From the NCBI GenBank assembly GCA_013297775.1, contig JAAFIL010000005.1:127377-151376 (forward strand): DNA of 24,000 nucleotides, given 5' to 3'. The DNA is from Bacteroidota bacterium (GTDB taxonomy: Bacteria > Bacteroidota > Bacteroidia > B-17B0 > Aurantibacillaceae). Position numbers and translations under genes: made by a program. How positions within the stretch are numbered: the first letter of the stretch is position 1; each line of letters starts with the position of its first letter. Below, one piece after another: positions 3,620-11,774 of the stretch. The notes beneath the pieces are model-generated. The model was not told the DNA's origin, searched no databases, and saw nothing but the letters and a program-made list of their open reading frames with translations.

Positions 3620-4288
3620 ATGAAAAAAGAAATTATTTTTGAAATACTAGAACATCTATTCGCTTTCGACGCGTCTTATAAAGACAGTAAAGACTATACC
3701 TTAAATGATTTTGTAGGTTACCTCACAGCGGTAACAGGCACGAATACAGTTGAAATGAGAGATATTGCAGGGGATAAGGAATTACATTTAAAAGAGGTAA
3801 GACGTGAAAATAATAGTGATGTCTCTATTTTAATTACGATTATGTTTCGTTATGCTAAGGGATATATTAAGAAAGCTTTGCAGAACAGCCCGATTCAAAC
3901 GATGGATGAATTTGCATTTTTGATTACCTTAATGACTTTTGATAGCCTTACCAAGACTGAACTTATTAATAAACAAGTAATGGAAAAAACTTCAGGGATA
4001 GAAGTTATCAAACGACTCTTAAGTCAAAAACTGATTAAAGAATTTGCCGATGAAAACGATAAAAGAAGCGTTAGAGTAGCAATTACAAGTAAAGGCAAAA
4101 AGGAGATAACGAGTGTATTACCTGAAATGGCGAATGTTTCAAAAATTGTTGTTGGCAATCTATCCAAAGCAGAGATTAACACTTTATCGTACTTACTAAA
4201 AAAGCTAGATTTTTTTCATAATGATATATTCATAAATAAGAAAGCGTTGACGCTTAATGAAATTTTAAGTGAGTCCACAAAAAACTAA
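3620..4288 (+). CDS. MarR-like winged-helix transcriptional regulator (222 aa, extended N-terminal region)
   Basis: The C-terminal half (TKTELINKQVMEKTSGIEVIKRLLSQKLIKEFADENDKRSVRVAITSKGKK) has the MarR wHTH pattern. It is divergent from the TonB-dependent receptor gene. Confidence 0.65.
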   Translation: MKKEIIFEILEHLFAFDASYKDSKDYTLNDFVGYLTAVTGTNTVEMRDIAGDKELHLKEVRRENNSDVSILITIMFRYAKGYIKKALQNSPIQTMDEFAFLITLMTFDSLTKTELINKQVMEKTSGIEVIKRLLSQKLIKEFADENDKRSVRVAITSKGKKEITSVLPEMANVSKIVVGNLSKAEINTLSYLLKKLDFFHNDIFINKKALTLNEILSESTKN

Positions 4289-4684
4289 AGATAACTTTAT
4301 ATAGGGGCTCCTCAGCAACTATAAAAATCAGTATTATTAAACATTTTAGAGGCAAAAATGAAAAAGAATCTGCAAGGTAAAAATGCTCAAAATTCAACAA
4401 ATACAGAAAAAACTCTTGAAGAACATTTCATAATAACGCATTATCAAATTAAAAAGAATTATGTTAGATCTCGAATAAGCATAAATTGAACCAATTAAAA
4501 TAGTAAAAGTCATAGTCAAATTGGCTGTTTTGAAAGTAATTGAAAAAGAGCTGAGTTTACGAGGAGTCCCTAAATAAACAAGGATTTAGTTGAAGACATT
4601 TTCATTTACAAGCATACTCAAATGATAAAAGAACACAATTTCTTTAATTCTTATAGGATTTCGTTCGGATTTAGCCTATTAAAG

Positions 4685-4718
4685 CCCACCAAAGCCTTAC
4701 AGAAATGTAGGGCTTTTT
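4685..4718 (+). repeat. Second copy of the tRNA-Val 3' end plus terminator (copy B)
   Basis: CCCACCAAAGCCTTACAGAAATGT is identical over 24 nt to 483-506. Homology at roughly 80% continues to ~4756, into the GIY-YIG start. Confidence 0.85.
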
Positions 4719-4724
4719 ATTTGA

Positions 4725-5064
<340 letters not shown>

Positions 5065-5071
<7 letters not shown>

Positions 5072-5117
5072 AAGCCTTACAGAACTTGTCCCGATACTCC
5101 GAGAAATGTGAGGCTTT
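5065..5117 (+). repeat. Third copy of the tRNA-Val 3' end plus terminator (copy C), split by a 21-nt insertion
   Basis: CCCACCAAAGCCTTACAG + [AACTTGTCCCGATACTCCGAG, 5083-5103] + AAATGTGAGGCTTT. Both flanks are identical to 483-514. Confidence 0.8.
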
Positions 5118-5150
5118 CTCTTTTTATCAATTTGTTACTCACGAATAGTT

Positions 5151-6170
5151 TCAAGTATAACCCTCTGAATACTTAGAAAGTGTATGTTTCATTCTGGATT
5201 GAATTTTTCTTGATAATCGTTTTGGACTTAGAACTTTCACTTGCTCTCCAAAGCCTAATATTTCACGCTCTAATTCAAAATTCCAAATAACCTCAATTGA
5301 AAAGATCGTCCCATCAGGATCTTCTCTTAATATTTTTTGCGAAGCATGTAACGGTTTTGTAATAATGTAAGGAGCGTGTTCTTTAATGATTTTCATCACA
5401 ATTAATTGTGGTGTTTGATTGGGCATTTTCGAAACACCAATAACATCATTAAAATAAGTGCTTACATCAAATTCTGCTTTGCGATATTTCTCAGAACTTA
5501 ATTCTTTGAATTGTTCAATTCTGTCTAGAGCTAAAATCATGGTGGCGTTTCCCTTTCTTTTGGCACCTAACACAAACCATCTATTGCGATACTCTTTCAA
5601 TAGATACGCATAAAACACGATTACCTGCGGCAACCGCGCTTTGAAAGATTGATAAGTAACTTCAATTGTTTTTTTGTTGATAATCGCCTTATGCAAAGGA
5701 TCAATATGTTTTAATCCTTTTAATAGTTCATTCTTTTCAAAATCAATGTATGATTTGCCTTTATGTTGTTGCTTGTAAAGCTTATCCTCTAGCCGAGTTA
5801 CCATACCATTTAACTCCTGAAAATAGCCAAAACCATTAAATTGTTTCAACACATGCAACACCTCGTTTAACGTTCCCAAATCTTGTTGAGTAATGGGCGA
5901 ATTAGTTATGCTATAATTTTTTTCTTCATAGCTGTAATACTTCTTATCTGTAACAACAATAGGCGCATTGTAACCCAGTTTTTCGCTGCGCATATTTTGT
6001 AAATCAAGTTGTATGGCTCGCTTACTAATCCCTTTTGTAATCCCTTCATATTCATATAACGCATCAGAACAGGCTTCCATTAAGTCTTCCAACGTCCATT
6101 TACGAAAACGATTTTGCAAACAATTGTCTATCGTTTTATATCTTACTAAGGCTAATTTATTAATTGGCAT
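5151..6170 (-). CDS. HTH + WYL-domain transcriptional regulator (YafY-like, 339 aa)
   Basis: It has an N-terminal wHTH-like region and a central WYL signature (YAYLLKEYRNRWFVLG). The C-terminal extension is typical of WYL regulators (VKVLSPKRLSRKI). It is divergent from rsr. Confidence 0.8.
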   Translation of the reverse strand: MPINKLALVRYKTIDNCLQNRFRKWTLEDLMEACSDALYEYEGITKGISKRAIQLDLQNMRSEKLGYNAPIVVTDKKYYSYEEKNYSITNSPITQQDLGTLNEVLHVLKQFNGFGYFQELNGMVTRLEDKLYKQQHKGKSYIDFEKNELLKGLKHIDPLHKAIINKKTIEVTYQSFKARLPQVIVFYAYLLKEYRNRWFVLGAKRKGNATMILALDRIEQFKELSSEKYRKAEFDVSTYFNDVIGVSKMPNQTPQLIVMKIIKEHAPYIITKPLHASQKILREDPDGTIFSIEVIWNFELEREILGFGEQVKVLSPKRLSRKIQSRMKHTLSKYSEGYT

Positions 6171-6218
6171 CTATTTTATTCCTTATAATTTGAGAAGTAA
6201 ATATAATACTTTTCAAAA

Positions 6219-6241
6219 ACTACGCAATCTATTTGCGTAGT
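6219..6241. promoter_or_regulatory. Operator-like perfect palindrome ACTACGCAA-N5-TTGCGTAGT (site 1)
   Basis: 9-bp perfect inverted repeat with a 5-bp spacer, 49 bp upstream of the WYL regulator start codon. Confidence 0.5.
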
Positions 6242-6331
6242 ATCAATTTAAAGATAGCATCAGTTTAAATTATTCTTACTGAATATCAATAAGTTAATAC
6301 TATTTTAGGTTATAAATTGAGAAAATAATTT

Positions 6332-6354
6332 ACTACGCAATTCGGATGCGTACT
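6332..6354. promoter_or_regulatory. Operator-like palindrome ACTACGCAA-N5-ATGCGTACT (site 2)
   Basis: The left half-site is identical to site 1. The right half has 2 mismatches. The two sites are 113 bp apart centre to centre, and site 2 ends ~160 bp upstream of rsr. Confidence 0.45.
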
Positions 6355-6479
6355 AGCACCTCACCTTTGTACTGTTAATATGAAACGCCAATAGAAAACG
6401 ATTTTAAATTGGCGTTAAATAAAAATAGAAAACATGAACTTTTTTTGTTTCAATTAAAAAAGTAACGAAAATCAAAAAA

Positions 6480-6491
6480 GTAACATGTTAC
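6480..6491. promoter_or_regulatory. Perfect 12-bp palindrome GTAACATGTTAC just upstream of rsr
   Basis: It ends 25 bp before the rsr ATG. Its left half belongs to the direct repeat AAAAAAGTAAC (6456-6466 and 6474-6484). Confidence 0.3.
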
Positions 6492-6516
6492 ATTAAAAAT
6501 AATAAAATAGAGCAAC

Positions 6517-8034
6517 ATGAAATTCAATGTCTTTAAAAGAAAAGCAAATGTAGTAAACAACTACGAAGGCGCAAAAGCTTACCAGTTAACTCCTGAAATT
6601 GAATTATACGCTGCTGTAGTAACAGCTGGATTAAGCGATACTTTTTATGAGAAAAGTGATATACGTTTGGCTAGAATACAAACGTTGATGTTGAAGAATA
6701 ATCCTGAGTATGTTGCAAAATTAGCAGTGTATGCGCGTAATGAAATGTACATGAGAAGTATCCCTTTGGTATTAGCTGTCGAGTTGGCCAAATTAAACTC
6801 AGGTAATGTAATTGTAAGTAAAACAGTAAATGGCGTTGTGAAACGTGCAGATGAAATCACGGAACTATTAGCTTACTACCAATTAGCCAATAATAGAAAT
6901 GGCGTTAAAAAATTGAACAAGCTTTCTAAACAAATACAAAAAGGTTTGTCTGAAGCTTTCAATAAATTTGATGAGTATCAATTTGCTAAGTATAACCGTG
7001 CAACTGAAGTAAAATTGCGTGATGCTTTATTTATAGTTCACCCAAAAGCTAAACAAGAATCTCAACAAGAGATATTCAATAAAATAGCTACTAATGGATT
7101 AGCAGTGCCATATACTTGGGAAACTGAATTATCGGCTTTAGGGCAAGTGAAATACGAAAATGAAAAAGTAAAAGCCCATGCGGTTAAAGTAAAATGGAAA
7201 GAGTTGATAGATAGCGGTAAAATAGGCTATATGGCATTGATGAGAAACTTGCGTAACATTTTAGATGCAAATGTATCAGCAGCACATGTTAAAAAAGTGT
7301 GCAACTATTTATCCAATGAAATTGCTGTTGCTAATTCAAAACAATTACCTTTTCGATTCTTGGCCGCTTACCGAGAGATAAAAATTTTAAAATCTGAATA
7401 TGTTACCATGATTTTAAATGCTTTAGAAGATGCAGTAGTTGCAAGTGCAAAAAACCTGAAAGGGTTTGATGAGTCAACAAGAGTATTGATTGCTTGTGAT
7501 GTATCTGGGTCAATGCAAAAAGCAGTATCTGCAAAAAGTAAAGTGATGTTGTTTGACATAGGTTTGATGTTGGGTATGTTGATGCAATCGAAATGTAAAA
7601 GAGTAGTAACCGGAATGTTTGGTGATAACTGGAAAGTGATAAACATGCCAAACCGTGGAGTATTATCAAATGTTGATGAATACTACAAACGAGAAGGTGA
7701 AGTTGGTTACGCAACAAATGGTTATAAAGTGATTGATGATTTAATCAATCGTGGAGTAATGATGGATAAAATAATGTTGTTCACTGACTGCCAATTGTGG
7801 GATGGCAAATTTGGAGGTTCAAGCCTTGAGAAATCATGGATATCCTACAAGCAAATAGTTCCAAATGCAAAATTGTATTTGTTCGATTTGGCAGGTTATG
7901 GCAACACTCCATTAAGTATTCAAAAAGATGATGTCTGCTTAATCGCAGGATGGTCAGATAAAGTGTTTGACGTGTTACATGCTATCGAAAACGGTGAGAG
8001 TGCTATTGAAAAAATCAAACAAGTAATGTTGTAA
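6517..8034 (+). CDS. rsr: Rsr / Ro60-like TROVE-domain protein with C-terminal vWA (MIDAS) domain, 505 aa
   Basis: The N-terminus NYEGAKAYQLTPEIELYAAVVTAGLSDTFYEKSD...YARNEMYMRS is TROVE-like. The C-terminal vWA has the MIDAS motif DVSGSM. Size and domain order match Ro 60-kDa orthologues. Confidence 0.85.
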   Translation: MKFNVFKRKANVVNNYEGAKAYQLTPEIELYAAVVTAGLSDTFYEKSDIRLARIQTLMLKNNPEYVAKLAVYARNEMYMRSIPLVLAVELAKLNSGNVIVSKTVNGVVKRADEITELLAYYQLANNRNGVKKLNKLSKQIQKGLSEAFNKFDEYQFAKYNRATEVKLRDALFIVHPKAKQESQQEIFNKIATNGLAVPYTWETELSALGQVKYENEKVKAHAVKVKWKELIDSGKIGYMALMRNLRNILDANVSAAHVKKVCNYLSNEIAVANSKQLPFRFLAAYREIKILKSEYVTMILNALEDAVVASAKNLKGFDESTRVLIACDVSGSMQKAVSAKSKVMLFDIGLMLGMLMQSKCKRVVTGMFGDNWKVINMPNRGVLSNVDEYYKREGEVGYATNGYKVIDDLINRGVMMDKIMLFTDCQLWDGKFGGSSLEKSWISYKQIVPNAKLYLFDLAGYGNTPLSIQKDDVCLIAGWSDKVFDVLHAIENGESAIEKIKQVML

Positions 8035-8042
8035 TAGAAGCC

Positions 8043-8070
8043 CCCTCTCTGTTAATTTGAACAGAGAGGG
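8043..8070 (+). terminator. Strong hairpin after rsr with a weak U-tract (leaky terminator or processing site)
   Basis: CCCTCTCTGTT (8043-8053) / AACAGAGAGGG (8060-8070) form an 11-bp perfect stem with loop AATTTG. It is followed by TTATAAAAA rather than a T-run. Confidence 0.5.
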
Positions 8071-8108
8071 TTATAAAAATTAGTTCTTTAAAATATGGAT
8101 ATTGTCAA

Positions 8109-8203
8109 AATGCCGTAGAATCGGAATACATCGCTCGCAACAGGGGAAGGGTCTCAATGCAAATTGGGAAGAGGTGCAAATCCTCATGCGTATCCCCGTT
8201 CTG
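8109..8203 (+). ncRNA. Y-RNA-like unit 1 (divergent)
   Basis: The 5' box is AATGCCGTAGAATCGGAATACATCG. Box residues 8116-8129 can pair with 8190-8203 (TAGAA-T-CGG / CCGTTCTG and ATAC / GTAT). Inside are a 7-bp hairpin capped by GCAA (TCTCAAT-GCAA-ATTGGGA, 8152-8169) and a T-arm-like hairpin (GAGG-TGCAAAT-CCTC, 8171-8185). Alternative registers exist, so the fold is uncertain. Confidence 0.45.
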
Positions 8204-8283
8204 AATTTGCTTTTGCTTTTGGCAAAAAACTGAAATGCCATGCATTCCAGATAACCAATAGTTAATATTATAAAAACATGAAA

Positions 8284-8363
8284 GATGCCGTAAATTAGGG
8301 ATACATCGTGGCCAACGCAGGTTCGAATCCTGCTCCTAGAGAAATTTAGGATTTTCCCTTATT
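8284..8363 (+). ncRNA. Y-RNA-like unit 2 (short; T-arm plus one hairpin, no D-arm)
   Basis: The 5' box is GATGCCGTAAATTAGGGATACATCG. The closing helix AATTAGGGA (8293-8301) / TCCCTTATT (8355-8363) pairs at 8 of 9 positions. It has a canonical T-arm GCAGG-TTCGAAT-CCTGC (8317-8333), then the hairpin TCCTA-GAGAAATT-TAGGA (8334-8351). Confidence 0.5.
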
Positions 8364-8391
8364 GCTTTTAGCTCTTTCATAAAATATAAAC

Positions 8392-8503
8392 AGTGTCGTA
8401 AGTAAGAGATACTTCGTTTTAATTTATGTGTCGTTGGTTCGAGTCCAACTTTCATGCAAATGAAATAGCTCAGTGGGTAGAGCAATAAAAAAGACTCTTA
8501 CGG
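8392..8503 (+). ncRNA. Y-RNA-like unit 3: YrlA-style permuted tRNA-like domain on a long bulged helix
   Basis: The 5' box is AGTGTCGTAAGTAAGAGATACTTCG. GTAAGAG (8402-8408) pairs with CTCTTAC (8495-8501), and TTTAT (8423-8427) pairs with ATAAA (8485-8489). The variable region is GTGTC. The T-arm is GTTGG-TTCGAGT-CCAAC (8433-8449). The acceptor-like hairpin is TTTCAT-GCAA-ATGAAA (8450-8465), followed by TA and the D-arm GCTC-AGTGGGTA-GAGC (8468-8483), then A. Confidence 0.65.
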
Positions 8504-8530
8504 ATTTTTACCTGTTTTGAAACAGTGAAT

Positions 8531-8651
8531 GGTGTCGTAGAATAGAGATACTTCGACTTCGGATCGGGCGGACGTGGGTTCGAATCCCATCAAGGTAACA
8601 ACCACTTTAATTACCTTGTAGCTCAGTGGAAGAGCACCTTGTGCTTTATTC
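8531..8651 (+). ncRNA. Y-RNA-like unit 4: circularly permuted, complete tRNA-Arg(UCG)-like cloverleaf inside a closing helix
   Basis: The closing helix is GAATAGAG (8540-8547) / CTTTATTC (8644-8651). The anticodon arm is TTCGA-CTTCGGA-TCGGG (8552-8568), the variable region is CGGAC, and the T-arm is GTGGG-TTCGAAT-CCCAT (8574-8590). The acceptor 3' strand CAAGGTA + A (8591-8598) is joined by a 14-nt loop to the acceptor 5' strand TACCTTG (8612-8618). Then come TA, the D-arm GCTC-AGTGGAA-GAGC (8621-8635) and A26 (8636). Confidence 0.65.
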
Positions 8652-8672
8652 GTTTGTTGCCCATTCATATTT

Positions 8673-8746
8673 CGGTTTATAGCTCAGTTTGGTAGAGCAC
8701 CGTCCTTTTAAGACGGGAGTCCTTGGTTCAAATCCAAGTAGGCCGA
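8673..8746 (+). tRNA. tRNA-Lys (anticodon TTT), AT-rich atypical acceptor, no encoded CCA
   Basis: 74-nt cloverleaf. The acceptor is CGGTTTA/TAGGCCG (C1-G72, two G.U pairs). The D-arm is GCTC-AGTTTGGTA-GAGC, the anticodon arm is CCGTC-CTTTTAA-GACGG, the variable region is GAGTC, and the T-arm is CTTGG-TTCAAAT-CCAAG. The discriminator is A. Confidence 0.75.
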
Positions 8747-8750
8747 CAAA

Positions 8751-8823
8751 GGAAATGTAGTAAAGATGGTCAATGCAGCGGACTGAAAATCCGATGATGT
8801 AGGTTCGAATCCTACCATTTCCA
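8751..8823 (+). tRNA. tRNA-Phe (anticodon GAA)-like, non-canonical
   Basis: 73 nt. The acceptor is GGAAATG/CATTTCC. The D-arm GTAA-AGATGGTCA-ATGC has one mismatch. The anticodon arm GCGGA-CTGAAAA-TCCGA has a G/A mismatch at 27-43. The variable loop is 4 nt, and the T-arm is GTAGG-TTCGAAT-CCTAC. It starts 4 nt after tRNA-Lys. Confidence 0.6.
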
Positions 8824-8832
8824 CAAATACTT

Positions 8833-8905
8833 CGGGAAGTATTTCAATTGTTAGAATGCAGGCTTTGGGAGCTTGTGGTTGCAGGTTCGAGTCCTGCCTT
8901 CCCGA
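8833..8905 (+). tRNA. tRNA-Pro (anticodon TGG)-like, non-canonical D-loop
   Basis: 73 nt. The acceptor is CGGGAAG/CTTCCCG. The D-arm is TTTC-AATTGTTA-GAAT (3 bp, no GG in the loop). The anticodon arm is CAGGC-TTTGGGA-GCTTG, the variable region is TGGTT, and the T-arm is GCAGG-TTCGAGT-CCTGC. The discriminator is A. Confidence 0.55.
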
Positions 8906-8910
8906 CAAAA

Positions 8911-8963
8911 AGTGCCGTACAACATAGTTACTTCGTACTTTTAATATGTTAAATACTATGTTG
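8911..8963 (+). ncRNA. Y-RNA-like unit 5 (minimal: 5' box plus closing helix, no tRNA-like insert)
   Basis: The 5' box is AGTGCCGTACAACATAGTTACTTCG. CAACATAGT (8920-8928) pairs perfectly with ACTATGTTG (8955-8963) around a 26-nt AT-rich insert. Confidence 0.45.
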
Positions 8964-9012
8964 GTTATTTGCCTTTTTAACCGAAATTTTAAGAAATCGG
9001 ACACTTTATAAT

Positions 9013-9071
9013 AAAACATCTAATCCATTTTTAAGTTTTGATTCTAAGTGTTTTACAGAGTTAGATGTTTT
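9013..9071 (+). terminator. Terminator-like inverted repeat at the end of the RNA array
   Basis: AAAACATCTAA (9013-9023) / TTAGATGTTTT (9061-9071) is a perfect 11-bp repeat ending in TTTTATT, but the 37-nt loop is atypical. Confidence 0.3.
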
Positions 9072-9122
9072 ATTCTAAAGAATTTCTTTTTTGAAACTAC
9101 GATTTAACTATCTATTTACGAC

Positions 9123-9288
9123 TTATACCAATATCGGTTCTAAAAGATACAAGTTGAACCAGAATTATTTTTCTTTTAGGCGACGAAAAAATTACAGACG
9201 TAGCAAGGCCTACGGGTATAATTTTTGAGGAAGTATAAGAGAAAAAGAAACTGGGTCAACGTATCTTTTAGAAATGATGTTGGTATAA
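9123..9288. repeat. 166-bp long imperfect palindrome (extended hairpin / MITE-like) abutting the hrpB stop codon
   Basis: The left arm is TTATACCAATATCGGTTCTAAAAGATACAAGTTGAACCAG... The reverse complement of the right arm is TTATACCAACATCATTTCTAAAAGATACGTTGACCCAG... Inner pairs are AAAAATTA/TAATTTTT and CGTAG/CTACG around the central loop CAAGGC. Confidence 0.6.
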
Positions 9289-9290
9289 AC

Positions 9291-11774
9291 TTATTTTACA
9301 CTTTTACCTTTGGCTAAAGCCTTTGCCTGCCAAGGGTCTTCGGGCCAAGCATGTTTTGGATAACGCCTTTGCAATTCCTTTTTCACTTCGTGGTATAAAT
9401 TATTCCAAAAACTTTTTAAGTCGGTAGTTACTTGTACGGGTTTATATCCAGGCGATAATAAATGCAGCACCACAGGCATTTGATTGTTATTAACACGAGG
9501 TGTATCGGCCAAACCAAACACCTCTTGTAAACGAACCGCCATAAGGGGTGTAGCTCCATTCATAAAATAGGTGATGGGTAATTTAGAACCACTTGGCACA
9601 TTTAATTTTGAAGGTGCCAAGGCATTCAACTGTTGTTGTTGCTCCCAACTTAAACTATTTAAAAAACATACCTCTAAATTTAATTTCTTCAAATCATCGG
9701 GTTTTCTGCACGTTTCTAAATAAGGCCCTAGCCATTGTTGCGCTTGCACCAACAGGTAATCAGTGCTACTTTCTGGCCAATCTGCGTTGGTATTCCACAC
9801 ACGTAAACTCGCCACCCGTGCCTGCAGTTGCGCCATCGGTTCATCCCAATTTAATAAACTTAAACCTTCGTTAGCAATGGCTTTACAAATAGCTTCACCG
9901 ATCAAGTGCTTTGGAAATGTAGTTAATGGATTACGTTTCAATACCAAAGCACCTAACTTCCATTCAGTAAAGGCTTGCAAACCCCCTTTACGGGTGTCCC
10001 AATACAACGACTCTTCTTCACGCACCAAACTTTTCAAATCGCTGGGATCTAGTGCGGCTGCTAAGAAAATTTTTCCATCTCCCTCGCGCATATCCACATG
10101 CGCTACTGCTAACCAAGGCTCATGCGCTAAATTATCTTGATGTGCGAACAAGGCGTACTTACCATTAGCCAATTGAAACCGAGCGTTGTTACCAGGGCGT
10201 GCCGAGGCAATGCGCTCGGGGTAAGCAAACGCTAATGCCAAGCCCGCACTATGAGCGTCTATGGCGGTATTACTTTCTTTCAATCCCAATAAATTCAAAT
10301 AGTAATTTGCGTTAGCAGCAATGCGTTTCCACGCTCCTGTTAAACGATTTTGTTCACGAAGACGGCGCAATAACTCGATGCGTAAATTAATATCTATACC
10401 ACTATCGCGCGGCATAGGATCCCGCTCATCTAATATGGCCGCTACATCGCAAGCCAATTGTTTAAGCGTTATATCGTGGGCTTGTAACAGCATGTGTGCT
10501 ATGCGCGGGTGGCAGCCCAAACGGTGGATGTGTTTGCCATGTTCAGTTAATTTATTTGCTTTAATAGCTTCTAACTGTTCGAGTAGCTCGTTAGCCTGCG
10601 CAAGAGCGGCTTTGGGGGGTGGCGTTACCCAATTCAAATCGTAAACGTTGCTAACACCCCATTTGGTGGCTTCTAAAACAAGGCCACTTAAATCGGCTTC
10701 TATTATTTCGGGTACACGGTGTTCGGCCAGACGATTGTGTGTTGCAGTACTCCACAAACGGTAACACACGCCACTGCTTAAACGACCAGCACGTCCCATG
10801 CGTTGGTCGGCAGCATCTTTACTAATGCGCAAGGTTTCTAACTTCGATAAACCCGAACGTGTATCGAACCGTTGGCGTTTGGCAAAACCGCTATCAATCA
10901 CAATACGCACTCCTTCGATGGTTAAACTTGTTTCGGCAATAGAGGTTGCTAACACTACTTTGCGCAAGCCTTGTTTATTAGGCATTAGTGCCGCTTGTTG
11001 TTCACTTGAACTTAATAAGCCATACAGCGGATGTATGCGAATAGTTGATAATTCATTTTTTAATAATGCCTCGCAACGGCGAATGTCAGCTTCACCGGGT
11101 AAAAATGCCAATAAATCCCCTTCATGTTTAGCAAGTGCTTCTACAATGCACTGCGCCATTAATTCGGGCAATAACCGCTCGTCGGCATCGTTTCCATAAA
11201 ATAACTCAACAGGGTATTGCCGTCCTGTGCTTTCGATGAAGGGGGCGTTTAACAACGCTTGTAGCTCGGGCATATTGAGGGTGGCCGACATAATGAGTAG
11301 GCGTAAATCGGGACGTAAAACCTGTTGCGCCTCTCTGCACAAAGCCAAAGCCATATCGGCTTGTAAATTGCGTTCGTGAAACTCATCAAAAATAACCAAA
11401 GCCGTATCTTCTAAAGCATTATCGTGTTGCAATAAACGCGTTAAGATGCCTTCGGTTACTACCTCTAAGCGTGTGGCTTTACTAATGCGGGTTTCGAGGC
11501 GTATGCGGTACCCCACCGTTTCGCCAACGGGTTCGTTAAGTAATTGCGCCATGCGTTGCGCAATACTTTTAGCGGCTAATCGGCGAGGCTCTAATACGAT
11601 TATTTTTTTTCCTTGTAACCACGTCTCATCTAATAATGCCAATGGTAAAATAGTGCTTTTGCCCGCACCCGGCGGTGCTCCTAACAGAAGCGTATTTTGC
11701 GCATGTAACTGTTGCTTTAAATCAGCAATGCAATCGTTAACAGGAAAATTATATAAAAACGGATCGAATGTCAT
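9291..11774 (-). CDS. hrpB: ATP-dependent DEAH-box RNA helicase HrpB
   Basis: 827 aa with Walker A GAPPGAGKST, DEFHER (DEAH box), SAT, and the helicase C / HA2 / HrpB_C layout. It is colinear with my recollection of enterobacterial HrpB. Confidence 0.9.
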   Translation of the reverse strand: MTFDPFLYNFPVNDCIADLKQQLHAQNTLLLGAPPGAGKSTILPLALLDETWLQGKKIIVLEPRRLAAKSIAQRMAQLLNEPVGETVGYRIRLETRISKATRLEVVTEGILTRLLQHDNALEDTALVIFDEFHERNLQADMALALCREAQQVLRPDLRLLIMSATLNMPELQALLNAPFIESTGRQYPVELFYGNDADERLLPELMAQCIVEALAKHEGDLLAFLPGEADIRRCEALLKNELSTIRIHPLYGLLSSSEQQAALMPNKQGLRKVVLATSIAETSLTIEGVRIVIDSGFAKRQRFDTRSGLSKLETLRISKDAADQRMGRAGRLSSGVCYRLWSTATHNRLAEHRVPEIIEADLSGLVLEATKWGVSNVYDLNWVTPPPKAALAQANELLEQLEAIKANKLTEHGKHIHRLGCHPRIAHMLLQAHDITLKQLACDVAAILDERDPMPRDSGIDINLRIELLRRLREQNRLTGAWKRIAANANYYLNLLGLKESNTAIDAHSAGLALAFAYPERIASARPGNNARFQLANGKYALFAHQDNLAHEPWLAVAHVDMREGDGKIFLAAALDPSDLKSLVREEESLYWDTRKGGLQAFTEWKLGALVLKRNPLTTFPKHLIGEAICKAIANEGLSLLNWDEPMAQLQARVASLRVWNTNADWPESSTDYLLVQAQQWLGPYLETCRKPDDLKKLNLEVCFLNSLSWEQQQQLNALAPSKLNVPSGSKLPITYFMNGATPLMAVRLQEVFGLADTPRVNNNQMPVVLHLLSPGYKPVQVTTDLKSFWNNLYHEVKKELQRRYPKHAWPEDPWQAKALAKGKSVK

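Follow-up and report, generated by a model that had tools for sequence, protein, structure and literature searches.

A probable array of Y RNA genes on a shared, covarying scaffold downstream of rsr in a Bacteroidota genome

What is the role of a short sequence box that recurs five times in a single gap between two genes of a Bacteroidota bacterium? The box lies in the stretch of 24,000 nucleotides (nt) analyzed here (positions 127,377 to 151,376 of contig JAAFIL010000005.1, assembly GCA_013297775.1; hereafter 'the window', whose coordinates are used unless a related locus is named). In this window, a 1.25-kb gap without a long open reading frame (ORF) is the site of the box array, with rsr, encoding an orthologue of the Ro60 protein, upstream and the hrpB helicase gene beyond. 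An earlier note on this DNA had read the box as one side of a helix that closes each of five small RNAs and as a candidate binding site for the rsr product, Rsr. We propose that the region 8102-8978, downstream of rsr, is an array of five Y RNA genes (units U1 to U5) on a shared, predicted Rsr-docking scaffold together with three tRNA genes, and we regard this explanation as likely.

The box, RTGYCGTA-N9-TACWTCG, has exactly five matches in the window, at 8110, 8285, 8393, 8532 and 8912, all on the + strand, and shuffled sequence gave 0.12 matches even with two mismatches allowed. The five copies listed in the earlier note (8109, 8284, 8392, 8531 and 8911) are thus real, with each coordinate one base too low. 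Each variable core within the box had been paired there with a complement of its own, and every pair was found in the sequence as tabulated: UAGAA-U-CGG with CCGUUCUG at 8196-8203 in U1 (one bulge), AAUUAGGGA with UCCCUUAUU at 8355-8363 in U2 (8 of 9 paired), GUAAGAG with CUCUUAC at 8495-8501 in U3 (7 of 7), GAAUAGAG with CUUUAUUC at 8644-8651 in U4 (8 of 8, one G·U) and CAACAUAGU with ACUAUGUUG at 8955-8963 in U5 (9 of 9). The distance from TACWTCG through the partner strand spans 26-95 nt across the five units. Equally good complements in shuffled sequence had been named as evidence against the helix; taken singly, the helices stand weakly above random or shuffled 9-mers on the same downstream stretch (p = 0.004-0.15), and in combination they depart from them more clearly (Fisher combined p = 0.0013). 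Minimum free energy (MFE) folds of the units as originally delimited were not significant (z = -0.3 to -1.8), and coherent folds appeared once the units were extended to take in the lower stem described below. The support from the window alone is modest to moderate, and the cross-genome comparison is decisive.

For this comparison, one genome per species was scanned, which gave 391 stretches encoding a relative of Rsr, and the best 80 (64-93% identity) were kept. They come from Chitinophagales, Saprospiraceae, Cytophagales, Sphingobacterium, Flavobacterium and Chryseobacterium, and with the window they make 81 sources; individual loci are given below by number (L001 and so on). A strict cross-locus pattern, slightly relaxed from the box (GNCGTA-N8-11-T[AG]C[AT]TCG), had 228 copies in 77 of the 81 sources, with one to six per locus, and all 228 lay on the rsr strand and none on the other. 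A relaxed scan, which allowed three mismatches and required the partner strands, collected 351 units on the rsr strand and two on the opposite one. The search of related genomes that the earlier note had called for thus finds the box at nearly all of these Bacteroidota rsr loci. In the relaxed scan, the constant core is U-G-Y-C-G-U ... U-N-C-U-U-C-G, and the view of a helix flanked by conserved nucleotides holds; approximately 75% of the units have A as the last base of CGUA, and 93% have a spacing of 9 nt. Variant boxes outside the strict pattern were also seen, namely GCCGUU at approximately 4470-4545 of L001, directly after tRNA-Gln, and GUCGUC at 7055-7183 of L064.

The box is the 5' strand of a scaffold formed by the RNA's own 5' and 3' ends. 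From the outside inward, this scaffold consists of a lower stem of 6-9 bp, a bulged U, a G:C and a Y:R pair, an asymmetric internal loop, an 8-bp helix and the sequence (U/A)UACUUCG, which we take to be unpaired and after which the cargo begins. The variable helix, previously taken for the closing helix, is actually the upper helix of a two-part stem whose lower stem had been overlooked. This lower stem joins the 6-9 nt located 5' of the box to the sequence past the 3' partner, and seven of seven pairs form in 120 of 228 units, compared with 99 of 1140 mismatched controls. All 176 well-anchored units have U at the bulge, the position of T in the box's 'RT', and the search pattern does not force this. 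The G-Y of GYCGTA pairs with R-C on the 3' side; in units with a well-paired lower stem, the Y:R position was C:G in 78 cases, U:A in 68, U:G in 16 and C:A in none, with 14 non-pairs. In the internal loop, the 5' CGUA stands opposite a U-rich 3' strand, whose length is 7 nt in 112 of 176 units and whose consensus is G-N-U-U-K-U-U. Given that (U/A)UACUUCG is kept in every cargo class, including the empty one, it belongs to the scaffold and not to the cargo. Unconstrained full-length folds of U2, U3 and U5 recover the scaffold layout.

The upper helix was examined in several ways. A unit's own core forms a better duplex with its own downstream region than a foreign core does (median -8.3 versus -6.1 kcal/mol, p ~1e-41). 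When the geometry was fixed and anchored on a different helix, 8-9 of the 9 core positions were paired in 61% of units versus 8.5% of mismatched controls. Under an anchor independent of core positions c1-c8, these positions pair in 69-89% of units; each of them exceeds all 500 shuffles, and several pair types occur at each. Position c9, which is U in 65% and A in 28% of units, is unpaired (44% versus 41% in shuffles), and on this point the earlier pairing of a ninth position is not supported. For the formal count, 90 distinct units were aligned without gaps after excision of the cargo, with the lower stem and the GY:RC pair as the only anchors. In this alignment, 88% of cells are paired versus 63% in shuffles, the upper helix is 79% paired, and all eight of its pairs vary on both sides. 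The covariation score is 0.715, compared with 0.259 in shuffles (none of 500 reach it) and 0.13-0.22 for slid partners, which bears out the original claim of a real helix with pairing-preserving changes. The result was noisy when only the lower stem served to anchor the 3' strand, as lower stems are rich in A and U, and two of the window units were misplaced; adding the GY:RC pair mended most of this. A compensatory change can be seen directly in U2, where the core ..AGGGA and its partner UCCCU.. in the window correspond to ..AGAGA and UCUCU.. in the closest relative, L001 (G:C to A:U).

The bias among mismatches shows on which strand the element is read. With a strand-neutral anchor in which only Watson-Crick pairs were used, G·U occurred 166 times in the upper helix and A·C 50 times. 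This excess indicates that the element is an RNA read from the + strand, which is also the strand of rsr; the array starts 68 nt past the rsr stop codon. In addition, rsr is the sole constant neighbor of the scaffold, given that the 4-kb downstream flank includes RtcB in 32 of 80 loci, and that WYL occurs in 42 of 80 and HrpB in none of 80. In a reverse test, two exact-pattern scans of viral contigs yielded 240 contigs with a match to the 14-base box, which were used as a negative control. These matches are mostly due to chance, as their best combined stem score centers on 12-13 of 18, whereas 75% of the boxes at rsr loci score at least 16. The full architecture (a score of at least 16) was present in 7 of the 240 viral contigs; all four contigs encoding an Rsr homologue were among these seven, and there were none among the other 233. 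In other words, the bare box occurs by chance in very large collections, whereas the box with both partner strands tracks rsr. The earlier note had allowed that the box might turn out to be a dispersed DNA repeat without a partner strand; this is contradicted by the strand exclusivity of the copies, by the compensatory changes and by the lack of partners in the chance matches.

The five units, all on the + strand, share this scaffold and differ in cargo. U1 (8102-8225) has the lower stem 8102-8110/8217-8225, a bulged U at 8111, GC 8112-13 paired with GC 8215-16, CGUA at 8114-17, the core at 8118-8126 and UACAUCG at 8127-8133; its partner strand is 8196-8203 in the earlier register or 8200-8207 in the canonical register with a 7-nt loop. 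Its fold recovers the scaffold, with an architecture score of 17/18. The cargo of U1 comprises a G-rich helix, a 7-bp GCAA-capped hairpin and a T-loop-like hairpin (GAGG-UGCAAAU-CCUC), and this type is kept in L001, L005, L006, L008, L010, L013 and L014, with a recognizable counterpart in Flavobacterium and Chryseobacterium. A likeness of this cargo to a cobalamin riboswitch (GGGAA...GGUGCAAAUCC) was considered and dropped, as Rfam gave no such match at E up to 10. U2 (8278-8380) has the lower stem 8278-8285/8373-8380, a bulged U at 8286, GC 8287-88 paired with GC 8371-72, CGUA at 8289-92, the core 8293-8301 paired with 8355-8363 and the 3' loop GCUUUUA at 8364-8370. Its cargo is a perfect T-arm at 8317-8333 (GCAGG-UUCGAAU-CCUGC) and a 7-bp hairpin, with no D-arm, and its fold has z = -2.4.

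U3 (8388-8517) has the lower stem 8388-8393/8512-8517, a bulged U at 8394, GU 8395-96 paired with AC 8510-11, CGUA at 8397-8400, the core 8401-8409 with its partner at 8495-8501 and the 3' loop at 8502-8509. It carries a permuted tRNA mimic of the type found in the bacterial Y RNA class YrlA, in which a T-arm is followed by a closed acceptor-like hairpin and then by a D-arm; the Rfam YrlA model (RF02553) matches 8402-8504 with 42.6 bits (E = 9.4e-8), below its gathering score of 69. U4 (8526-8667) has the lower stem 8526-8532/8661-8667, a bulged U at 8533, GU 8534-35 paired with GC 8659-60 (one U·G), CGUA at 8536-39, the core 8540-8548 with its partner at 8644-8651 and the 3' loop GUUUGUU at 8652-8658. 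It likewise carries a YrlA-type permuted tRNA mimic, with an 8-bp acceptor-like stem; its architecture score is 18/18, and the YrlA match covers the tRNA-like core at 8567-8638 (31.4 bits, E = 1.6e-4). U5 (8907-8978) has the lower stem 8907-8912/8973-8978, a bulged U at 8913, GC 8914-15 paired with GC 8971-72, CGUA at 8916-19, the core 8920-8928 paired at nine of nine positions with 8955-8963 and the 3' loop GUUAUUU at 8964-8970. It holds nothing but a 19-nt loop beyond UACUUCG, and its MFE and centroid folds both give the exact scaffold (z = -2.1). The cargo therefore ranges, as first described, from almost nothing in U5 to the full tRNA mimics of U3 and U4. At gathering thresholds, Rfam reports tRNAs alone in the window, and YrlA is seen only in E-value mode, in which U1, U2 and U5 have no YrlA match. 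ARAGORN and the Rfam tRNA model call none of the five box units, and report only the three true tRNAs at 8673-8906.

If these are Y RNAs, then the question is how they relate to those already known. Chen et al. described likely Y RNAs close to rsr in 254 bacteria and 22 phages, with a 5' motif, GNCGAA(N0-1)G, that is thought to contact Rsr, a YUAY motif and a permuted tRNA-like module; each characterized species has two or more Y RNAs, and one of these is a simple hairpin (PMC4201824). In all Y RNAs, the Ro60 site lies in the stem made by both ends, and Ro60 reads mainly the 5' strand (Wang et al., 10.1101/312249). A study of the phiLo Ro60 protein places the CGAA motif inside the internal bulge of a stem-bulge-stem structure (PMC12135203). 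Compared with GNCGAA, our box motif G-Y-C-G-U-A(R) matches at positions 1-4, has U at position 5 and has A at position 6 in approximately 75% of cases. Judged from its sequence, the box is therefore not a new motif: GYCGUA reads as a one-position variant of GNCGAA(N0-1)G, and (U/A)UAC matches YUAY. In the units collected, the place of YUAY between the stem and the tRNA-like module is taken by c9, as U or A, followed by U-A-C; in the cmscan alignment of L064, the variable helix falls on YrlA helix 2, and AUAC on the consensus CUAc. The permuted module itself (T-arm, closed acceptor-like stem, D-arm) was found in the cmscan alignments of U3 and U4 only.

The units further resemble YrlA in position, lying within approximately 1 kb of rsr on the same strand, several per locus and often linked to rtcB in relatives. 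They are modular, with an end-to-end stem and an effector module, in which U3 and U4 present the T-arm, closed acceptor-like stem and D-arm in order, and they share a 5' motif of the form G-N-C-G-x-A and a YUAY-like (U/A)UAC where the stem passes into the tRNA-like part. Unlike YrlA, they have GYCGUA in place of GNCGAA, an extra invariant CUUCG at a fixed distance of nine nucleotides, an invariant bulged U and a U-rich 3' loop strand. The characterized species, three in number, have two Y RNAs each, whereas there are five units in the window and up to six strict copies in relatives; in addition, true tRNA genes are interleaved here, and a WYL regulator takes the place of RtcR. With S. Typhimurium YrlB, M. 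smegmatis YrlB and D. radiodurans Yrn2 (PMC4201824), compared by description, U5 shares a long hairpin whose loop is small. U2, with its T-arm and no D-arm, recalls M. smegmatis YrlB, for which a possible T-arm has been reported (PMC4201824). U2 and U5 also share their locus with a YrlA-type RNA, as YrlB and Yrn2 do, but the minimal and tRNA-like RNAs here are built on one strictly conserved scaffold.

The metazoan Y_RNA model had no Rfam match in 7950-9350 at E up to 10. Metazoan Y RNAs (human, Xenopus) have a terminal stem, a single bulged pyrimidine, two base pairs, an asymmetric internal loop and an upper stem, and the layout of our scaffold is alike, without sequence similarity. As in the Ro60-binding stem of metazoan Y RNAs, the conserved bases are concentrated on the 5' strand (X. 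laevis Ro60-Y RNA structure, Stein et al. 2005, as set out in 10.1101/312249 and PMC12135203). By this analogy, it is the lower part of the scaffold, and not the upper helix, that resembles the bulged Ro-binding helix of Y RNAs. The Y RNA-like RNAs of phages (Yrl1 and Yrl2 of Thermus phage phiLo, PMC12135203; mycobacteriophage YrlAs, PMC4201824) are likewise stem-bulge-stem structures beside a Ro60 gene, with an internal-loop motif of CGAA type, yet their sequence motifs differ from ours. Actinophages such as Gordonia phage Trax also have tRNA genes in the neighborhood, whereas the context of our locus is chromosomal. Compared with the published stem-loop-stem Ro60 module, the scaffold corresponds point by point by analogy, with G-Y atop the lower stem, CGUA in the loop, then the second helix and UAC.

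On these grounds, we class the five units as Y RNAs of a lineage-specific variant, with U3 and U4 as divergent YrlA members and U1, U2 and U5 as Y RNAs outside YrlA that are built on the same scaffold. In the searchable literature, the species list of Chen et al. 2014 aside, we found no description of this variant, and no paper there combines YrlA with Flavobacterium. To the same extent, what is novel relative to known Y RNAs would be the GYCGUA and UACUUCG motifs, the strict spacing, the arrays of at least five units, the diverse cargoes and the interleaved tRNAs.

How such an array might work can be outlined from its structure. Rsr would dock on the scaffold and read the invariant U-G-Y-C-G-U and C-U-U-C-G of the 5' strand, the two motifs being kept at a distance of nine nucleotides by a helix that must pair but is free in sequence. 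The use of an 8-bp helix as a free-sequence spacer would explain why a covarying helix lies beside flanks that do not vary. The cargo would be an effector or mimic module, for which U3 and U4 have a tRNA mimic, U2 a T-arm, U1 a T-loop fold and U5 nothing, and each cargo may tether Rsr to, or compete for, a different partner. Comparable roles have been proposed for YrlA, namely tethering to PNPase (PMC4201824, 10.1101/312249) and inhibiting an anticodon nuclease by competition (PMC7790460). The array probably gives a single precursor transcript, made together with rsr or after it, and this would be cut into units partly by tRNA-processing enzymes (RNase P and 3' tRNA processing) at the interleaved tRNAs. 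The Y RNAs of M. smegmatis arise by processing of a single precursor, and RNase P cleaves the YrlA of this species (PMC4201824). In the window, neighboring units are 7-8 nt apart, tRNA-Lys starts 5 nt past U4, and U5 begins at the base after tRNA-Pro. The motif TAnnTTTG is the Bacteroidota -7 promoter consensus. It was not found on the + strand of 7567-9304, whereas each of the two stand-alone tRNAs of the window has it shortly upstream; a scan for sigma-70-type promoters is uninformative in Bacteroidota. The tight packing, the interleaved tRNAs and the absence of the -7 motif fit a single processed transcript. We infer Rsr binding, co-transcription with processing, and the function of the cargoes from these features.

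We also considered other explanations for the conserved stem. It might mainly be a processing signal for an endonuclease (of the RNase III or RNase E/G type, or RNase P/Z acting through the tRNA-like parts) that frees cargoes and tRNAs from a long operon transcript. The spacing of only 0-8 nt between units and from true tRNAs, the tRNA arrays that flank rsr in L001, L002, L003, L036 and L078, and the precursor processing and RNase P cut known from M. smegmatis (PMC4201824) all agree with this. However, the scaffold also occurs in loci without any tRNA gene, including most of the scanned Flavobacterium and Chryseobacterium loci, minimal units such as U5 hold nothing to release, and the invariant single-stranded bases at a fixed 9-nt spacing would be left unexplained. 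We therefore think it unlikely as the main role, although a processing signal and an Rsr-docking site are not exclusive of each other. Somewhat less probable still is that the box is read not by Rsr but by another protein of the RNA-repair neighborhood, such as the WYL/WCX regulator, RtcB or RlaP. WYL domains bind nucleic-acid ligands, and 42 of 80 loci have a WYL gene divergent from rsr; RtcB is encoded downstream in 32 of 80, L001 has RlaP, and the Salmonella operon regulator RtcR senses RNA fragments (PMC7790460). Against such a reader, the scaffold is present in loci with none of WYL, RtcB and RlaP inside the 4-kb flanks, no Chryseobacterium locus has a WYL match in its flank, the window itself is without rtcB, and in viral contigs and crAss-like phages the scaffold adjoins a TROVE gene.

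Two further explanations concern the box itself. It might act as a conformational switch, in which a local hairpin of G-U-A and U-A-C(UUC)G around N9 competes with the long-range helix; CGUA and UAC..G are indeed complementary and invariant, and their spacing is 9 nt in 93% of units. Yet a hairpin of 3-4 bp is far weaker than the covarying 8-bp helix, N9 as a loop would need no covarying partner, and none of the folds predicts such a hairpin, so that we consider a switch highly improbable. The least credible of the explanations is a DNA-level repeat without RNA function, such as a recombination site, the end of a miniature transposable element or a residue of tRNA-gene duplication. Tandem copies are what such a repeat would leave, and exact 14-base matches are common by chance in very large collections. 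But the copies are strand-specific (228 versus 0 in the strict and 351 versus 2 in the relaxed scan), compensatory changes preserve two helices, and G·U exceeds A·C. Moreover, across the orders of Bacteroidota, the box together with its partner strands is limited to rsr loci, and chance matches elsewhere are without partner strands.

Several observations weigh against the explanation that we prefer, namely Y RNAs docking on Rsr. The literal motif GNCGAA is absent, with U at position 5 and a variable position 6 in the collected units. The YrlA gathering score of 69 was reached neither by U3 (42.6 bits) nor by U4 (31.4 bits), nor in any of 15 related loci. Invariance of several box positions in the 228-unit set is partly forced by the search pattern, which the relaxed scan corrects in part. 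For UACUUCG, no consistent pairing partner or role was found in the YrlA-type units examined, and GUA ... UAC could form a small alternative hairpin, on which covariation is uninformative because these bases are invariant. The hairpin at 8043-8070, if it terminates transcription, might require the array to have a promoter of its own that has gone unrecognized. Lastly, both binding and expression of the Rsr RNAs of Bacteroidota are predictions. As for the gathering score, Gordonia phage Trax has a YrlA-like match upstream of a Ro-like gene that is also below 69 (44.1 bits), which suggests that the YrlA threshold is strict for divergent members. The Trax Ro locus adjoins a tRNA array.

The genes around the array are consistent with a chromosomal context, with a TonB-dependent receptor gene, hrpB and housekeeping genes as flanks. 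rsr (6517-8034, +) encodes a product of 505 amino acids with a TROVE domain (Pfam, 2e-28) and a vWA domain, for which the Ro60 vWA match is weak; it has more than 5000 homologues, many of which are named '60 kDa SS-A/Ro ribonucleoprotein' by their sources. Divergent from rsr is a gene for a transcription regulator with WYL and WCX domains (5151-6170, -; Pfam 1.5e-9 and 1.9e-11), a homologue of which lies divergently upstream of rsr in 42 of the 80 related loci. This protein may be a ligand-sensing regulator of the rsr operon, in a role like that of the CARF protein RtcR in Salmonella. On the far side of the gap, a convergent gene encodes the HrpB-type helicase (9291-11774). Directly 3' of the rsr stop codon lies the 11-bp hairpin mentioned above (8043-8070, +), which is conserved in L001, has no good U-tail on the + strand and could be a partial terminator, a processing site or a stabilizer of the mRNA 3' end. 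The tRNA genes between U4 and U5, all on the + strand and called by both Rfam and ARAGORN, are tRNA-Lys(UUU) at 8673-8747, tRNA-Phe(GAA) at 8751-8824 and tRNA-Pro(UGG) at 8833-8906, with Rfam scores of 65, 67.9 and 60 bits, respectively.

The closest relative, L001, whose Rsr is 93% identical, has the same four units followed by six tRNAs (3981-4466), a further unit, rtcB, another unit and rlaP; its unit 2 directly follows unit 1. The RtcB RNA ligase is encoded at 4629-6050 (Pfam 4e-81) and the RlaP nucleotidyltransferase at 6174-6974 (2e-78). No rtcB was found anywhere in the 24-kb window, which thus appears to represent an RNA-repair operon of the type rsr-Y RNA-tRNA-rtcB from which rtcB has been lost. 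The number of tRNA genes in or flanking the rsr locus varies, with three in the window, six in L001, 17 in L002 (1515-2728 and 6475-8038), 10 in L003 (134-2493) and nine in L078 (2-1290).

Other cargoes were seen in more distant loci. L064 (Chryseobacterium, 7614-7830) and L073 (Chitinophagaceae, 6484-6680) have a class of Y RNA with a cargo of approximately 180 nt, which starts with UAACUAUAACGGUCCUAAGGUAGCGAAAUUC right after UACUUCG. BLAST against E. coli genomes showed that 34-46 nt of this cargo are 91-100% identical to E. coli 23S rRNA, in a stretch that we take to be the helix 69-71 region, and the cargo had no Rfam rRNA match. This unit may be an rRNA-mimic Y RNA. In the Crassvirales, a TROVE gene is followed by an unannotated gap (4200-5000 of L322, Bacteroides phage PhiCrAssBcn24; 4350-4760 of L323, crAss-like phage cr106_1). 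The gap holds 4-5 related units of the form GUGUA (once GUGAU)-N9/10-UAC(U/A)UCA, most with a good downstream complement, and matching lower stems are visible in both units inspected; Y RNAs are not mentioned in the literature checked on the crAss001 TROVE gene or on crAss-like phages. At 4458-4601 of L322 and approximately 4538-4680 of L323, the scaffold box replaces the anticodon arm of a tRNA-like gene whose acceptor stem, D-arm and T-arm are normal; the Rfam tRNA model gives 46.6 bits over 144 nt. Such a gene would be an unpermuted chimera of tRNA and Y RNA with free acceptor ends.

To our knowledge, bacterial Y RNAs have been studied by experiment in three species only, and we know of nobody who has found the binding partner of the tRNA-like module. 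A sharply defined, covarying scaffold with at least four cargo types in the window and more in relatives is a ready structure-function series, which bears on what Rsr reads and on what each cargo recruits. We tentatively suggest, as a possibility that goes well beyond the array itself, that the Y RNA stem of Bacteroidota and their phages is a constant display scaffold for a library of RNA mimics, and that with tRNA arrays, RtcB and RlaP it forms an RNA-damage response island. If this speculation is true, then the scaffold mounts full tRNA mimics, isolated T-arms, T-loop folds and a 23S segment and, in crAss-like phages, is itself inserted into an otherwise normal tRNA, and each Y RNA would be a decoy or adaptor for a different RNA-targeting toxin or RNA-processing enzyme. 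The fixed 9-nt spacing of two invariant single-stranded motifs predicts a ruler-like protein contact, and the layout punctuated by tRNAs predicts maturation by tRNA-processing enzymes. Given that the Rfam gathering score misses these RNAs, the arrays of Bacteroidota, including cultivable Flavobacterium and Chryseobacterium, and of crAss-like gut phages are probably unannotated.

Some smaller elements lie in or near these loci. Within the spacer of approximately 50 nt between U1 and U2, which is missing in L001, there is a 9-bp hairpin at 8230-8250. Just 3' of U5, a hairpin at 9004-9080, with a 37-nt loop and arms of 20 nt (95% complementary), may terminate the array. Between the array and the 3' end of hrpB, positions 9123-9288 form a near-perfect hairpin of 166 nt that is paired almost throughout; a second copy was not found in the window, nor was any plasmid match. 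Its 28-nt outer arms are 89% complementary, and a 312-nt region here folds at z = -8.8. In L041 (Chryseobacterium), a Flavo-1 RNA (RF01705) lies on the opposite strand just downstream of rsr (5569-5659, -), with 62 bits, above the gathering score. Finally, a stand-alone ORF of 82 amino acids with a GIY-YIG nuclease domain (4728-4976, +) lies between a MarR-like gene and the WYL regulator of the window.

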